Assembly (NCBI GenBank): GCA_963530385.1
Contig: CAUSCX010000002.1
Span: 13,025-77,024, forward strand
From: an uncultured Streptococcus sp.
GTDB taxonomy: Bacteria; Bacillota; Bacilli; Lactobacillales; Streptococcaceae
Reading direction: 5' to 3'
Length of the DNA: 64,000 nucleotides
This document shows positions 5,878 through 47,385 of this stretch, one piece after another. The notes below the pieces were generated by a model. That model searched no databases, was not told the DNA's origin, and saw only the letters and a program-made list of their open reading frames with translations. Position numbers and translations under genes: made by a program. The stretch's first letter is position 1, and each line of letters starts with the position of its first letter.

Positions 5878-7857
5878 TTATTTCACATGACTCGCTAACT
5901 CTTTTTGAGCTTTTTCGTTTGATTCAGCTTTTTCTTTGAGCCATTTTTCACGAGCTTCTTTGTACTCTTTGGTTGTTACAGTGTTAGCTTGCAATTTAAG
6001 GTACTTGAAGTATACATCTGAACCTTTATCACCAGATTGAGTGTAAGAGGCTGAGAATGGTACTACACGAGAAATAACTGGTGCTGCTCCTGAAGATGAC
6101 ATAGCTGGAAGGAAGAGTGAGCTATCTGTCAACCAAGCTTGAGCTGCTGCATATTTCTCATAACGTTTGTTAAGGTCACTTGTTTCACTAGCTGCATCAT
6201 CAACTAATTTGTCGTAATCTTTCAAACCAACTTGAGCAACCGCTGGGTTTGATGGATTGTCATAGCCCATGTAGGTTTTAGTTGTTTCACTATTAGTTGA
6301 TTTCAAGATATCAAGGTAAGTCGATGGATCATCATAGTCTGGATTCCATCCAACAGCACCTGAAAGGTCCCAATCTTCTGCTGCAGCACTAGCAGCGTAG
6401 TACGTGATATTGTGTAATTCATCCGTAGTGATTTGTTGGATATCGATAACTACATTATCTGTACCCAAAGCGGTTTCAACAGATTGTTTGAATGATTGGA
6501 TACGAGCGATATAGTTTTTAGATGTTTGGTCAACTGGAATATCCAAGTGGATTGGGAATTTCACACCATCTGCTTCAAGGTCTTTTTTAGCTTTAGCTAG
6601 TTCTGCTTTAGCTTTATCAGCATTGTAAAGACCATCTTGGCCATCCGCAAAGTTTACATCTTTCCACTCATCACCATAAGAAACAACTTTCTCAGTGACC
6701 AAGTCACCAAATGTTTTTTCACCTGCTGAAACAAATTCTGGTTTTACGAAGAGGTTACGGACAGCAAGGGCTGCTCCATCCTTACCATTTAGCTGAGCTG
6801 AATAAGCAGTACGATCAAAAGCAAAGTTCAAAGCTTGACGGAAATCTTTATTAAGAAGGGCTTTCTTAGTAGATGTTTTTTCTTCGTCAGTTGTTTTTGA
6901 TGTGTACTTATAGCTTTGACGGTCAATATTAACACCCAAACCAGCAATACCAGCTCCTTGTGGAGTATAGTAAATATTGTCTTTATATGTTTCTGCTACC
7001 TTAGAATAGTTTGAGCTAGTAGGGAAGAGACGGGCATAACTGTATGCACCATTTGTAAAGTTACGCTCAAGTGACTCTTGGTCTGAACCATCATAGTAAG
7101 AAAGTGTTACAGTATCGATGTGAACATTGTCCTTATCCCAATACTGATCATTCTTTGCAAACTCAACAGAAGACTTAGCTGTCAATCCTTTAAGCAAGAA
7201 TGGACCATTGTAAAGTAATGATGTTGGGTCTGTCGCCTTACCAAAATCTTTACCTTTTGATTTCTCAAACTCTGCGTTCAAAGGCCAGAAGATTGCGTAA
7301 GACAATTTAGAGTTCCAGTATGGTTCTGGTTGGTTCAAAGTGTATTGAAGAGTGTAATCATCGACTGCTTTAACACCTACAGCAGAGAAGTCTGTATTAT
7401 TCCCTGATAAGTAGTCAGCCAATCCTTTAACAGAATTTTGTGCTAGGTAAAGAGCGGCTGATTTATTGTCGGCTGCGTGTTTCAAACCTGTAACAAAGTC
7501 ATTTGCAGTTACTTCTGCATATTCTTCACCATCAGATGTCAACCATTTTACACCTTTACGAATTTTATAAGTGTATGTCAAACCATCTTGAGATACTGAC
7601 CAGTCTTCAGCGACTGCAGGAGTAAGGTTTCCATACTTATCATTGGTAAAGAGTCCGTCGATACCGTTTGAAGTGACAACTTTTGTACTTTGTTTACCTG
7701 AGATGAGGTAATCCAATGTTTCTGGGTCAGCAGTATAAATATAGCCATAAGCTTTTGGTGCTTCAGCATTTGATGATTTTGAAGAACCGCAAGCTGCGAG
7801 AACACCTGTTGCAAGTAGGGTAACACCAGCTACCGCTAAAATCCGACTTTTTTTCAT
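5878..7857 (-). CDS. amiA: oligopeptide-binding lipoprotein
   Basis: Lipobox LAAC, SBP family 5, first gene of operon. Confidence 0.9.
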   Translation of the reverse strand: MKKSRILAVAGVTLLATGVLAACGSSKSSNAEAPKAYGYIYTADPETLDYLISGKQSTKVVTSNGIDGLFTNDKYGNLTPAVAEDWSVSQDGLTYTYKIRKGVKWLTSDGEEYAEVTANDFVTGLKHAADNKSAALYLAQNSVKGLADYLSGNNTDFSAVGVKAVDDYTLQYTLNQPEPYWNSKLSYAIFWPLNAEFEKSKGKDFGKATDPTSLLYNGPFLLKGLTAKSSVEFAKNDQYWDKDNVHIDTVTLSYYDGSDQESLERNFTNGAYSYARLFPTSSNYSKVAETYKDNIYYTPQGAGIAGLGVNIDRQSYKYTSKTTDEEKTSTKKALLNKDFRQALNFAFDRTAYSAQLNGKDGAALAVRNLFVKPEFVSAGEKTFGDLVTEKVVSYGDEWKDVNFADGQDGLYNADKAKAELAKAKKDLEADGVKFPIHLDIPVDQTSKNYIARIQSFKQSVETALGTDNVVIDIQQITTDELHNITYYAASAAAEDWDLSGAVGWNPDYDDPSTYLDILKSTNSETTKTYMGYDNPSNPAVAQVGLKDYDKLVDDAASETSDLNKRYEKYAAAQAWLTDSSLFLPAMSSSGAAPVISRVVPFSASYTQSGDKGSDVYFKYLKLQANTVTTKEYKEAREKWLKEKAESNEKAQKELASHVK

Positions 7858-7898
7858 GTTTAGTTAACTCCTCTATTAAAATTAATGAGATACTGTTG

Positions 7899-7944
7899 AT
7901 TATACCATAATCCCTTTCAAAAGTAAACGAATTTTCAGAATATT
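7899..7944 (-). promoter_or_regulatory. amiA promoter with adjacent CodY box
   Basis: TTTACT-17-TATAAT (extended TG); AATTTTCAGAATATT at 7930-7944 is 14/15 to CodY consensus. Confidence 0.7.
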
Positions 7945-7998
7945 TTGTCGCATACCATCTGATAAGCAGGAAAACTTACATTTTCAGAAAAGAAACTA

Positions 7999-8027
7999 TT
8001 GACGAGATTTAATTTAAAGGGTATAAT
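7999..8027 (+). promoter_or_regulatory. tRNA-Cys promoter
   Basis: TTGACG-17-TATAAT. Confidence 0.8.
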
Positions 8028-8039
8028 AATAAAAGTTAA

Positions 8040-8110
8040 GGCGGTATAGCCAAGTGGTAAGGCACGGCTCTGCAAAAGCTTGATCGTCGGTTCAAATCCG
8101 TCTACCGCCT
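8040..8110 (+). tRNA. tRNA-Cys(GCA), prophage integration target
   Basis: GGCGGTA/TACCGCC acceptor, GCA anticodon, GGTTCAAATCC T-arm, U discriminator. Confidence 0.95.
8095..8110 (+). repeat. left att core AATCCGTCTACCGCCT
   Basis: Exact copy at 47370-47385. Confidence 0.9.
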
Positions 8111-8143
8111 TATAATACCGATTTTATCGGAATTTATCCAGAC

Positions 8144-8170
8144 AAAAAGCCCGATTTCATGGGCTTTTTT
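8144..8170 (+). terminator. phage-supplied terminator after tRNA-Cys
   Basis: AAAAGCCC-loop-GGGCTTTT followed by T tract. Confidence 0.7.
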
Positions 8171-8210
8171 ATTTTTTTCTTCATATAAATAAGGATAACT
8201 TTAAAAAACT

Positions 8211-8231
8211 TTTGGGGCGAGTTTGGGGCGA
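8211..8231 (+). repeat. tandem TTTGGGGCG, putative integrase arm-type sites
   Basis: Two copies 11 bp apart; same pair at 47315-47335. Confidence 0.7.
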
Positions 8232-8260
8232 GAATATTTTGAAATAATTTATCAAAACGA

Positions 8261-8289
8261 TTGACTTTCTCGGTATACCGTGATATAAT
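8261..8289 (+). promoter_or_regulatory. sigma70 promoter with palindromic operator in spacer
   Basis: TTGACT-17-TATAAT with extended TG; CGGTATACCG palindrome 8271-8280. Confidence 0.8.
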
Positions 8290-8320
8290 GTAATCAAGAT
8301 AAGGAAAGGGGGTGAGAAAG

Positions 8321-8470
8321 TTGAACAAAGAAGATTGGCTTAGGTTACTTGAAAAGGCGATAGATAATATCCCTGAAACAGTGACTGCTATAGCAAGTCT
8401 GGTGACTGCAATAACAGTCGCAAGGCAAAACAAAAAGCGTAAACCCGAATCCCGCAAAAGAAAAAGGTAA
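8321..8470 (+). CDS. 49-aa small protein, hydrophobic core and basic tail
   Basis: TTG start after AGGGGGTGA RBS; MNKEDWLRLLEKAIDNIPETVTAIASLVTAITVARQNKKRKPESRKRKR. Confidence 0.7.
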   Translation: MNKEDWLRLLEKAIDNIPETVTAIASLVTAITVARQNKKRKPESRKRKR

Positions 8471-8534
8471 ACGCTAAGAGGTGGGGCGAAAGCCCCTCAC
8501 ACCTCTATTTTATCAAATGAAAAGAGGAAAAGCA

Positions 8535-8609
8535 ATGGTTAGTGCAATAGCTATTTTTATAATTGCAATCAATGTATATATCTATCTAAAAAATAAAAAG
8601 GACAAATAA
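8535..8609 (+). CDS. 24-aa single-TM peptide (30 aa if started at 8517)
   Basis: AGAGGA RBS; MVSAIAIFIIAINVYIYLKNKKDK. Confidence 0.55.
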   Translation: MVSAIAIFIIAINVYIYLKNKKDK

Positions 8610-8610
8610 T

Positions 8611-8790
8611 ATGAGAAAAGTTATTCAAGAATTATTAGACAGCCCGATGTCTACATCTGCTATTTCGCAAGGCGCTGGAGTTCCGTGGACTACTGTTTCT
8701 GACCTTAGAAAAGGAAAAACAAGCATGGACAAAATGGCGCTTCTAACGGCAGAAAAGCTCTATGAATTTGCTACAGCTGATAAGCAGTGA
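8611..8790 (+). CDS. 59-aa XRE-like HTH regulator
   Basis: MRKVIQELLDSPMSTSAISQGAGVPWTTVSDLRKGKTSMDKMALLTAEKLYEFATADKQ; AAGGA RBS; HTH pattern. Confidence 0.8.
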   Translation: MRKVIQELLDSPMSTSAISQGAGVPWTTVSDLRKGKTSMDKMALLTAEKLYEFATADKQ

Positions 8791-8812
8791 TTTCGGTCAC
8801 TGTTTTTATTTT
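8783..8812 (+). terminator. terminator of small-ORF operon
   Basis: GCAGTGA-TTTCGG-TCACTGT then T tract. Confidence 0.75.
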
Positions 8813-8990
8813 TAACAAAACATCGTTTTTGACAATAATCAAAAAATAAAAGGGATCTATTATTAACAAAATGGCATTTTTGACAATAATACCCTACCAA
8901 TCCCCTCTCTATTCTTCAAGAAAACGATTTTTTGAACAATAGGATTGTAACTTTGGTTTCTAATCGTTCAAAATGCGTGTTTTTGAACAA
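8812..8990. repeat. four imperfect palindromes with 51-52 bp period
   Basis: TTTTTGA(A)CAA cores with G at 8831, 8882, 8934, 8985. Confidence 0.65.
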
Positions 8991-8992
8991 AC

Positions 8993-9020
8993 AAAAAAAC
9001 CGCAAGCGTGAGCCTGCGGT
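8993..9020 (-). terminator. lysin terminator
   Basis: ACCGCAGGC-TCAC-GCTTGCGGT then T tract on minus strand. Confidence 0.8.
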
Positions 9021-9050
9021 CTAGCGTAATAATTTTTTATTCTTTCTGTT

Positions 9051-10007
9051 TTATTTTGTCGTGATGAGCCCTTCTGGCTCAACCACGAATTCAGGCTTGT
9101 CAGCAAGTGAACCGTCTGGTTTAAGGTAATACCAGCCTTTGCCATCTGCTGACTGGACAAATGCGTTAGATACCATATTTCCGTCCTTGCTATCTAGGTA
9201 GTACCAAGTGTCTTTGTATTTAACCCAGCCTGTCCTCATGGCGCCTTCTGCATCGAAATAGTACCACTTATCAGCAATTTTCTTCCAGCCAGTGGCCATG
9301 GCTCCTGAAGGGTCTAAATAGTACCATTTACTGTCTGAATGCTTCTTCCACTTATCCGAGAGCATATAACCAGAACCGTCAAAATAATACCAGGTGCCAT
9401 CGATTTTTTCAAATTGTTCTTTCGGATAAGAGCCATCTTCTCGAACATACCAGTAGCCTGTTGTATTTTGTTTCCAACCTGCTTCTACATCGAGACCGTT
9501 CTCAATATCATGCTTGAATTGTTCTCTACTAATTCCCCAGCTTGCTAGATAAGGATATGGGTCAACGTGGTCGCTATAATTATTAGGTTGATTGTTAGTG
9601 CAGTATTCGTGCGATTTAATACCTTCCAATGCGTCCGAATCTAACGTTTTAGGAAGACCTGCTTCGTCTGCTAGATTTCGTAGTAATTCAATGTACAGAC
9701 GGTAATCTTCCATAAACTCTTCTTTGGTAGAATGACTTTCAATCAGTTCGACTGCTGCATACGTTTCATAATTCCAGCCGCCTCCCACATCGTAGGCACC
9801 ATTATTTACTGGTCCTACCTGCATCACTCGTCCATTGCCGACAACATGTGAGAAGAAACCAGATTCGACAGGTCTGCGCATGTGGTAATCTGCTTCATTT
9901 TGAGCAGTTGAGTTTTTATTTCCAGTTGAATGAGCGTGAATTTGTCGATAAGGAGCGTAACCGATTTGAGGTAATCCCTCTCTATATCTGCTTGTATCTA
10001 TATCCAT
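9051..10007 (-). CDS. endolysin, LytA-like amidase with choline-binding repeats
   Basis: [23 protein letters not shown]-terminal GW-x-WYY repeats; ATG overlaps holin stop. Confidence 0.95.
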
Positions 10008-31356: not shown

Positions 31357-31429
31357 CGGGAACAACTGGAATTGAACCAATGGCCTCCTAGGCTTCAACT
31401 AGGCGCTCTACCAACTGAGCTATATTCCC
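31357..31429 (-). tRNA. phage tRNA-Phe(GAA)
   Basis: GGGAATA/TGTTCCC acceptor, GCTC/GAGC D-stem, CCTAG-TTGAAGC-CTAGG, ATTGG-TTCAATT-CCAGT. Confidence 0.85.
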
Positions 31430-33903: not shown

Positions 33904-34481
33904 TCAACCTCCTCATTTTTTATTGATTCATACGCTCTTTTATAAGCATCCAAATATAGAAATACTATTTCAGACACTTTTTTACCAGCGAATTCAAGAG
34001 TCTCATAGTATTCTGAATCTTGTTCACTCAGGAATTCTCGAACAGTATCAGTAATGTGTTTGAATCCATGCCGATCATCGAAATATTCAAATAGTTCATC
34101 AAAATAATATCGATCATTTTCGTCTAAGTCTTCATATCGCTTATTATCAAAGAAATACTCAAGAATAATTTTTTTAGCTTCATCTTCATCATAAACAAAA
34201 AGATGTCGACTAGATGCTTTGATTTTTTCAATAAAATATCCAGCGTTGTTTGTGAAATCCTTATAGAAATCTTCCCAACTACCCATATTATTAAAATTTA
34301 CTGCAACCAACTCACCGAAATCACCTGTGATGGCTAGAGATGAATTTTTCTTATCGAAAATATATCTTAGATTATACATTAGATTATATTCTGGACTATG
34401 ATAATCAATGATTGTAATATCATCTAATTCGATTTTTTTAGCAATGTGCTTGTTAAAATAGTGTGCAAATGATTCCATCAC
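33900..34481 (-). CDS. phage hypothetical protein
   Basis: 193 aa, LAITGDFGE motif, AT-rich. Confidence 0.7.
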   Translation of the reverse strand: MMESFAHYFNKHIAKKIELDDITIIDYHSPEYNLMYNLRYIFDKKNSSLAITGDFGELVAVNFNNMGSWEDFYKDFTNNAGYFIEKIKASSRHLFVYDEDEAKKIILEYFFDNKRYEDLDENDRYYFDELFEYFDDRHGFKHITDTVREFLSEQDSEYYETLEFAGKKVSEIVFLYLDAYKRAYESIKNEEVE

Positions 34482-34966
34482 TCAACCTCCTCCACTTCAA
34501 ATAGTGGACTATTAAACACTTCACCAAAACCATAATATTCTAGTTCCTTTCGTGTAAATTTTTCGTTATTTTTCCAATTGTTAAAAAAATGGAATCCAGT
34601 TTCTGTTTGATTTAGATAATCATCTGTATTTTTTAACTTGACTTTGTATTTTGGCTCTTTCTCGACCTCGTAGCCGTCAAGCCATGCGCGAGCGAGAATA
34701 TCCATATTCTTTTTTTGATAAAACCATTTTGATATTTCGGTATCTCTTGACTCATTTCTTACATCTTCGAAAATGTCTTCTAAATCCCAAAAGTTTAACT
34801 TTGCAAAACCAAGTAAAGCATCCACAAACTGCGGTACTACTGGTTTCTGCGGTTCGTCTAGTTGTCTGACTAGACCTAAAACTAGATTCTTGTCGATCCA
34901 AGGTCTAGTTCTTGTATTATGTGCTGGTAATGCTTCGATTTTTTCAATCAATTCCTGCTTATTCAT
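34478..34966 (-). CDS. DUF1642-like phage protein
   Basis: VVPQFV..., ARAWLDGYEVE. Confidence 0.8.
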   Translation of the reverse strand: MNKQELIEKIEALPAHNTRTRPWIDKNLVLGLVRQLDEPQKPVVPQFVDALLGFAKLNFWDLEDIFEDVRNESRDTEISKWFYQKKNMDILARAWLDGYEVEKEPKYKVKLKNTDDYLNQTETGFHFFNNWKNNEKFTRKELEYYGFGEVFNSPLFEVEEVE

Positions 34967-45063: not shown

Positions 45064-45504
45064 ATGAAAGAGGAAGAATATCTAAAAAATAGACTGAAAG
45101 GCCAGATAAACTGGTATGACAGCAAAAGTCAATGGCATCAAAAGTGGTATAAATGTCTAAAGTATGTCGAACTACTTCTCGGTTTTATGATTCCGATTTT
45201 ATCAGCTTGGGAGCCTCCGCATTTTTCGATTATATCAGCTATCTGTGCAAGTGGAATGCTTCTATGCGAAAGCGCTATTTCCTTATCAAAGCACCGTGAT
45301 AATTGGATTGACTATCGTAGAACGGCAGAATCATTAAAACATGAAAAATATATGTTTTTAACAGGAACTGGTGTCTATAAAAATGAAAACGATAGCTTCG
45401 CTTTGCTTGTTGAACGTTGCGAAACTATCATTTCAAGCGAAAATATAAATTGGGCAAATTTACAAACAGATACCGTACAAAGAAAGGAACTATATGACAG
45501 ATAA
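45064..45504 (+). CDS. SLATT/DUF4231 two-TM protein
   Basis: QINWY, two hydrophobic helices, W..YR..AE.LK.E. Confidence 0.85.
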   Translation: MKEEEYLKNRLKGQINWYDSKSQWHQKWYKCLKYVELLLGFMIPILSAWEPPHFSIISAICASGMLLCESAISLSKHRDNWIDYRRTAESLKHEKYMFLTGTGVYKNENDSFALLVERCETIISSENINWANLQTDTVQRKELYDR

Positions 45505-45892
45505 AATTTTTGTGAGTTATAGAGCAGATGATGAAGGCACTTTGCATAAAAACTTGCTAGTGGCTTGGTCAAGAAATGATCGTTTTTTCCCAGAAATTAA
45601 ATTTCATGATACCTCTATCGGAACTTCCATCAATTCGGTCAATGCAAACTATATCAAATCAGTAATAAAAGACCGAATAAAAGAATCAGATATCGTGCTA
45701 TGTCTTGTTGGCAAAAATACTGGAAACTCAGATTGGGTCAATTGGGAAATTGAAACAGCTTATCAACTAAATAAAAAAATCGTAGCCGTCAAAATTGAAC
45801 GATACTACGATACACCTAGTGCATTATTTGGAAAAGGTGCGAGTTGGGCCTTAGATTTTTCAAAAAACTCAATTTTAAGAGCTCTATCCTAA
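45494..45892 (+). CDS. TIR-domain protein, ThsB/DUF1863-like
   Basis: [24 protein letters not shown] with putative catalytic Glu. Confidence 0.88.
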
Positions 45893-47369: not shown

Positions 47370-47385
47370 AATCCGTCTACCGCCT
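47370..47385 (+). repeat. right att core
   Basis: Duplicate of tRNA-Cys 3' end. Confidence 0.9.

Follow-up and report, generated by a model that had tools for sequence, protein, structure and literature searches.

The window, a 64-kb stretch of DNA, comes from a mitis-group-like Streptococcus and contains a 39-kb prophage whose closest phage records in a similarity search were those of S. oralis, S. mitis and S. pneumoniae. A gene for a choline-binding amidase (the lysin) on the minus strand ends at 9051, and the integrase gene lies at the opposite end of the prophage. In the gap that separates the left junction from the lysin gene there is a cassette of three small open reading frames. The features of the junction and the cassette are as follows.

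8039-8111, plus strand: host tRNA-Cys gene, integration target of the prophage, found by a tRNA search
8095-8110, inside tRNA-Cys, and repeated at 47370-47385: 16-bp att core
8261-8289, plus strand: sigma-A type promoter, TTGACT-17-TATAAT with extended -10 (TG), conserved in relatives
8268-8283, within the promoter spacer: imperfect 16-bp palindrome, predicted operator of the HTH protein
8321-8470, plus strand: ORF1, 49 aa, TTG start (phrog_3399; PH10 ORF54)
8431-8500, minus strand: predicted antisense sRNA of about 70 nt, both ends predicted from its promoter and terminator
8477-8506, plus strand: intergenic GC-rich hairpin with a GAAA loop and a weak U tract, able to form on both strands
8507-8535, minus strand: predicted antisense promoter, -35 TTGCTT (8535-8530), 17 nt, TG, -10 TAAAAT (8512-8507), covering the RBS and start of ORF2
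8535-8609, plus strand: ORF2, 24 aa (PH10 ORF53)
8611-8790, plus strand: HTH gene, 59 aa, stand-alone four-helix protein (phrog_1529; PH10 ORF52)
8782-8814, plus strand: operon-ending intrinsic terminator, stem 8782-8805 followed by a U tract

The hexamers of the sense promoter (TTGACT at 8261-8266 and TATAAT at 8284-8289, 17 nt apart) agree with the consensus at 11 of 12 positions, and the palindrome, self-complementary at 14 of its 16 positions, occupies 16 of the 17 spacer bases. ORF1 has an amphipathic N-terminus, a moderately hydrophobic 17-mer (mean KD 1.56) and lysine or arginine at 10 of its last 15 residues. ORF2 consists of one helix, hydrophobic at a mean KD of 2.38, and ends in a short basic tail; an alternative 30-aa form, from the ATG at 8517, has no RBS. 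ORF1, ORF2 and the HTH gene each have an RBS, and the HTH start codon lies 1 nt past the ORF2 stop.

The promoter, the 16-bp palindrome, the ORFs of 49, 24 and 59 aa, their RBSs and the terminator had all been picked out by a sequence-only reading of this DNA, and each was found where it had been placed. The same reading had called the operon hidden, which it is not: all three ORFs are in GenBank for phage PH10 as hypothetical proteins. It had also put the operon at attL; the junction (the 16-bp core inside tRNA-Cys) is real, and it is the lysin-side one, for which attR is the usual name in streptococcal papers. Finally, its statement that the operon runs opposite to the lytic genes is true here and not in general, since a second cassette in the same genome is co-directional with the 329-aa gene that precedes it, which is probably a lysin gene.

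Other elements of the prophage were recorded alongside. Two 33-nt direct repeats (8807-8839 and 8858-8890), 85% alike, partly palindromic and missing in some relatives, sit between the cassette terminator and the lysin terminator. The prophage has a tRNA-Phe-like gene of its own at 31357-31429 (minus strand). At 45064-45892 on the plus strand, with the CI repressor gene to one side and the integrase gene to the other, are a SLATT two-helix membrane protein and a ThsB-like TIR protein, a candidate prophage-borne anti-phage pair. In an Rfam search over 7800-9200, the tRNA alone passed the gathering score.

Selection on the three ORFs was assessed in 218 type-A loci, close relatives of the cassette that represent 120 distinct sequences. 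The pN/pS ratio was 0.15 for ORF1 (61 alleles; 0.13 over codons 2-36), 0.16 for ORF2 (34 alleles) and 0.18 for the HTH gene (85 alleles). Purifying selection at 0.15-0.18 on all three therefore marks them as real coding genes. In 401 sampled genomes of the genus, the ORF1 profile was positive in 34 and the HTH profile in 54. In the ESM Atlas, ORF1 recovered its own cluster alone, the next matches being at 0.87 and without a name, and a plasmid search gave no match.

Three elements absent from the earlier account were recognized at the same locus: the intergenic hairpin at 8477-8506, the antisense promoter, and an antisense terminator at 8431-8476. The antisense promoter agrees with the consensus at 8 of 12 positions and does not appear in the list of a consensus scan. 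The predicted RNA of about 70 nt would span the final 40 nt of ORF1 together with 30 nt of the hairpin, and would consist of a 5' hairpin followed by a terminator stem closing around the ORF1 stop codon, with a U tract that is the copy of the ORF1 lysine codons. Of 238 type-A loci, 228 could be parsed. They give 47 variants, all close relatives, which without exception have the TG extension, and in 44 the -35 element starts with TTG. Five streptococcal peptide types, different in sequence, keep the antisense -10 and the terminator stem with differing base pairs. In a covariation count of this stem over two sequence groups, 92.9% of cells were paired, with 4 double changes, against 38-63% in slid controls.

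The antisense promoter, the terminator and the HTH gene are kept in all 107 distinct type-A sequences with an intact ORF1. Among 13 sequences with a broken ORF1, the antisense promoter is lost in 6 and the HTH gene in 3; these alleles are related remnants gathered through the HTH or ORF1, so that the order of the losses is unfixed and complete loss of the HTH is invisible. As a pattern of sequence loss, this fits a harmful ORF1. Some decayed cassettes (L182-L186, L236 and L286) apparently persist without the rest of the phage; they lie near a gene whose length, 443 aa, equals that of the host gene next to the other att end of the window. Of seven RNA runs, the two taken as raw reads had no reads on the cassette, and contigs, used for the rest, show its presence, not strand or level. 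We also considered the prophage sRNAs of S. pyogenes SF370 as support and set them aside, as none in the available text of PMC4829319 was placed on a module.

The third protein had been suggested to resemble the N-terminal HTH domain of AcrIIA14/AcrIIA15, pending an alignment. The alignment (E 8e-8, with 22 of 54 identities counted from it) and the fold agree on this point: the model of the HTH protein (pLDDT 91) superimposes on AcrIIA15 with TM 0.93-0.96 and on Aca11 with TM 0.93, at an rmsd of 0.7-0.9 Å, whereas by sequence Aca11 is matched at E 0.53 only. The protein and the AcrIIA15 N-terminal domain are truly related, and its model has the AcrIIA15-NTD/Aca11 fold, sharing the four-helix arrangement of the AcrIIA13-15 N-terminal domains and Aca11 (PDB 8jfr and 9lx2; available text of PMC7104187 and PMC10901769). 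Most, not all, of the dimer residues named in the accessible part of PMC10901769 are identical in it (R2, I5, L8, L9, L32, L44, E48 and L50). Also like IR2 of acrIIA15, as described there, an inverted repeat lies between the -35 and -10 of the gene's own promoter. The residues that read bases in AcrIIA15 according to the same text (S25, Q26 and K31) are in contrast P25, W26 and D31 in the HTH protein, and with all three changed an operator different from that of AcrIIA15 is expected.

The palindrome is the sole zero-mismatch match in the window, and a loose search of the whole genome for its core gave 4 matches, of which one, that of the cassette, lies in this promoter. We compared operators with recognition helices in a table that counts redundant loci and takes the four commonest spacers per group (36 of the 214 loci in the largest group have no promoter call). 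HTH proteins with the recognition helix of the window protein go with a CGG-N4-CCG spacer core, whichever peptides accompany them: type A, type B (1 locus), type C, type D or none at all (7 loci). A second HTH class, with the helix DTTISRW, goes with a different palindrome, beside type-B peptides or none. In S. pyogenes and S. dysgalactiae phages, the peptide pair is again present, with a third palindrome and no window-type HTH. The operator thus tracks the recognition helix and not the peptides, so autorepression is likely: the HTH protein is a predicted repressor of its own promoter, acting through the spacer palindrome. Autoregulation, proposed earlier from the palindrome, is supported to that extent by covariation. 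An action of the HTH in trans on other operons was tried and rejected, as there is no second operator in the window and the convergent promoters of two relatives (L004 and L020) have none.

The second cassette of this genome, in another prophage (contig C11, about 34040-34600; L280:2140-2700), has unrelated type-B peptides, the second HTH class and a palindrome of its own, which makes it a ready-made specificity control. In many relatives (L187-L192, L278 and L413-L441) the HTH is fused to about 185 more residues, with a C-terminus resembling the UvrD/PcrA-like Tudor domain, an RNA-polymerase-binding fold, and a middle domain folded at low confidence. The idea that these fusions are hidden AcrIIA15 homologues was dropped, as the AcrIIA15 match is confined to the N-terminal domain with none beyond it. 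Some relatives (L004:195-1708 and L178) have a convergent three-gene operon past the HTH, encoding an AP2-domain protein and proteins of 183 and 114 aa. The 114-aa protein has an AcrIIA3-like look; library searches gave no match to confirm this.

A scan of viral contigs for a hairpin followed by ATTATA returned at least 120 loci. Among the matches listed, 117 were usable and were dereplicated to 40, of which 25 have a small RBS-led ORF ending just upstream of the hairpin and were classed as modules, leaving 15 non-module controls. All counts in this paragraph refer to these listed matches. ORF1 is hydrophobic in 21 of the 25 modules, as is ORF2, with a clear RBS before 4 of 21 ORF2s. The antisense -35, TG extension and terminator were left out of the search pattern and are hence unselected. 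A TTG at a spacing of exactly 17 nt to the antisense -10 was seen in 10 of 25 modules and 2 of 15 controls (the remaining offsets between 8 and 31 give 0-4), the TG extension is present in 16 of 25 modules, against a background of 1.3, and 1 of 15 controls, and a terminator was called in 15 of 25 modules, 1 of 15 controls and 1-6 of 25 in 20 shuffles; 10 of the 25 modules have no terminator call. The sense-promoter spacer is palindromic in 19 of 24 modules (shuffles: mean 1.8, maximum 6). A small protein encoded downstream was chosen by eye in 23 of the 25 modules, and 13 of these proteins match a Pfam HTH, RHH or AbrB-type family (E<0.001). The shared design is a palindromic promoter, a small basic/hydrophobic ORF, a hairpin, an antisense promoter, a hydrophobic ORF and a small DNA-binding protein. 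From promoter and RBS style, we infer that the module contigs are Firmicutes phages.

A second scan pattern gave 33 loci, mainly of the type-B streptococcal module. In one subfamily (L297, L305 and L326) the promoter, hairpin and antisense promoter are kept, peptide 1 is non-hydrophobic, and a soluble ORF2 is followed by an RHH-type gene. A group B streptococcal prophage (L408:270-770) has an unannotated type-C peptide pair and then a small annotated ORF, divergent from paratox.

The predicted antisense RNA moves the reading of the locus from an acr-like operon to a type I toxin-antitoxin-like module. ORF1 encodes a small hydrophobic protein with a charged C-terminus, as expected of a type I toxin, and at the DNA level a convergent cis antisense gene (promoter 8535-8507 and terminator) lies over the toxin candidate's 3' end. 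We consider that the cassette is probably a type I toxin-antitoxin module on the yonT/SR6 plan, to which an Aca-like autorepressor, itself exchangeable, is added, its toxicity and its RNA both being predictions. A toxin was among several roles floated for the peptides by the sequence-only reading, and of these it is the one we favour, on balance and with some reserve.

Such a module would have two locks, the antisense RNA silencing a likely membrane-toxic ORF1 and the HTH repressing the shared promoter. The near-consensus promoter, whose elements are in the sequence, would give a single ORF1-ORF2-HTH message, and an HTH dimer on the spacer palindrome would limit it, as fold and covariation suggest. 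From the minus-strand promoter over the ORF2 start, the predicted RNA would pair with ORF1 over its final 40 nt and with 30 nt of the hairpin. By analogy with yonT/SR6 only, RNase III may then cut the duplex, so that the ORF1 part is lost and a fragment with ORF2 and HTH is left. Once the antisense RNA was exhausted, ORF1 would be released and the cell harmed, so that the prophage would be kept or rival phages aborted. ORF2 may be a second, weaker membrane peptide, as YoyJ is. Some points sit awkwardly with a toxin: a promoter that is both strong and self-repressed is active when the phage enters a naive cell, a poor fit for a lethal product; ORF1 of the cassette is only moderately hydrophobic; and ORF1 is non-hydrophobic in 4 of the 25 modules among the matches listed.

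A self-repressed strong promoter suits a pulse at phage entry as well as it suits addiction, so an exclusion or anti-defence role has to be weighed. The cassette would then give a brief burst of two membrane peptides in a naive cell before the HTH and the antisense RNA shut it off, and the peptides, perhaps paired, would alter the membrane, resulting in phage exclusion, a block of DNA uptake or a blunted membrane-linked defence. The palindromic spacers in 19 of 24 modules and DNA-binding genes downstream in 13 of 23, among the matches listed, recall the acr-aca design in the available text of PMC9410906; ORF1 and ORF2 types stay paired at the streptococcal loci read while the HTH is swapped; and the group B streptococcal relative adjoins paratox. 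Against this, acr-aca operons, as the accessible literature describes them, have no antisense RNA, the sole tested locus with equal geometry encodes a potent toxin (available part of PMC5848175), and the loss pattern agrees with a harmful ORF1. We regard the entry pulse as rather unlikely, and as the strongest of the alternatives. A leader-peptide arrangement is improbable; in it the hairpin would be switched by ORF1 translation and by the antisense RNA, and would thereby set either termination or the translation of ORF2 and HTH, these two being the functional products. The 3' arm of the hairpin can pair with its own 5' arm or with the ORF2 Shine-Dalgarno, and few family ORF2s (4 of 21, matches listed) have a clear RBS; but the predicted shift in Shine-Dalgarno accessibility is small (0.32 to 0.17), for which reason such a switch was rejected, and selection along the length of ORF1 (codons 2-36) goes beyond a leader's need.

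Least probable, in our view, is that the peptides are Acr proteins with the HTH as their Aca, although the homology to the AcrIIA15 N-terminal domain, the Aca11 fold, an operator placed as IR2 of acrIIA15 (accessible text of PMC10901769) and a slot beside the lysin gene, common for accessory genes, all speak for it. The peptides are hydrophobic and basic, and searches of Pfam, PHROGs, NCBIfam and PADLOC, libraries that contain few Acr models, and structure matches gave no Acr or anti-defence family for ORF1 or ORF2. The same peptide pairs occur without the window HTH and with RHH or AbrB-type regulators, the longer fusions in relatives match AcrIIA15 through its N-terminal domain only, and a search of the host assembly, only 83% complete, showed no CRISPR array. 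Unlike AcrIIA13-15, the HTH has no fused Acr domain, and the operon has no known acr gene, which a strict definition of Aca would place there. The anti-CRISPR or anti-defence proposal of the sequence-only reading is not supported: no family names the peptides so, and a stand-alone HTH precedes the terminator. According to the available part of PMC9410906, just 15% of Aca-like genes have a known or predicted acr gene as neighbour, and the present locus adds a warning that an Aca-like HTH beside small ORFs is no proof of an anti-CRISPR locus.

The preferred type I toxin-antitoxin reading brings Aca-type autorepression together with type I antisense control, two layers of regulation that are mostly treated separately. 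The design is present in prophages of oral, pneumococcal and pyogenic streptococci as well as in many further phage contigs; its peptide sequences are unrelated, and homology searches therefore miss what a short architectural rule finds. The three hypothetical PH10 ORFs and the type I design were known; the probable variant that bears an autorepressor, which is widespread, seems to be new. For both the cassette and the wider architecture we found no description in the literature, largely openly available papers, and the cassette is not described in the available text of PMC7104187, PMC2887945, PMC6563280, PMC11357604, PMC4829319, PMC6755750 and PMC6431027. Tentatively, and as a possibility that we would not stake much on, these loci may form a large class of phage modules, divergent in sequence and so far in no catalogue, that is recognizable by its architecture only, with an exchangeable HTH, RHH or AbrB autorepressor and yonT-yoyJ/SR6 as an outlier member, giving an entry-timed pulse of two cooperating membrane peptides for exclusion or anti-defence and not simple addiction.

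Among known systems the cassette was compared with small prophage toxins of type I. Hydrophobic toxins with a basic C-terminus are described for prophages of C. difficile and B. subtilis (accessible text of PMC6563280), and a 'holtox' gene adjoins paratox in group B streptococcal prophages (accessible text of PMC11357604). The cassette peptides resemble these C. difficile/TxpA toxins as small hydrophobic prophage peptides with lysine-rich C-termini; the latter, as portrayed in the available parts of both papers, are single, without a second peptide or an autorepressor. Pfam type I toxin families matched none of 57 module peptides at E<=0.02; Hol_Tox/TxpA (PF16935) gave 0 of 57, and ORF2 scores 13 bits (E 0.1) where the curated threshold is 23.3.

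The closest design is yonT-yoyJ/SR6. As given in the available text of PMC5848175, YonT is a 58-aa toxin of the B. subtilis prophage SPbeta with homologues known from few Bacillus species only, YoyJ is a second, weaker toxin, and SR6, an antisense RNA of about 100 nt with an extended -10 promoter, promotes RNase III-dependent decay of yonT mRNA. Both are prophage loci with a basic-tailed hydrophobic ORF1, an intergenic hairpin and a polycistronic message (available parts of PMC5848175 and PMC2887945), a convergent extended -10 promoter (ATTATA at SPbeta) just past the hairpin and a second hydrophobic ORF, and as with SR6 the antisense terminator is encoded in the basic tail of ORF1. In the family, ORF2 starts mostly 16-27 nt past the antisense -10 among the matches listed; at SPbeta yoyJ (L407:4742-4936) this geometry suggests a later ATG as the YoyJ start, giving 64 aa, which could explain the absent translation product of the annotated 83-aa form reported in the accessible part of PMC5848175.

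The differences are as clear. The hydrophobic stretch is weaker in ORF1 (mean KD 1.56) than in YonT (2.32), and ORF2 has 24 aa and one helix where YoyJ has two. The third gene encodes an HTH, to which YonU is unrelated, with its operator in the promoter. There is no detectable sequence homology to yonT-yoyJ (hhalign probability 2.9% to YonT), and the NCBIfam YonT model NF047537, which gives YonT itself 110 bits, matched neither ORF1 nor ORF2 at E<=0.01 and 0 of 8 cassette peptides. The cassette is therefore yonT/SR6-like in its predicted working and not a member of the YonT family. Its predicted RNA of 70 nt, unlike the 100-nt SR6, ends short of the ORF2 RBS; the same architectural length rule that yields 70 nt here yields 101 nt at SPbeta, reproducing the length measured for SR6 in the available text of PMC5848175 (about 100 nt).
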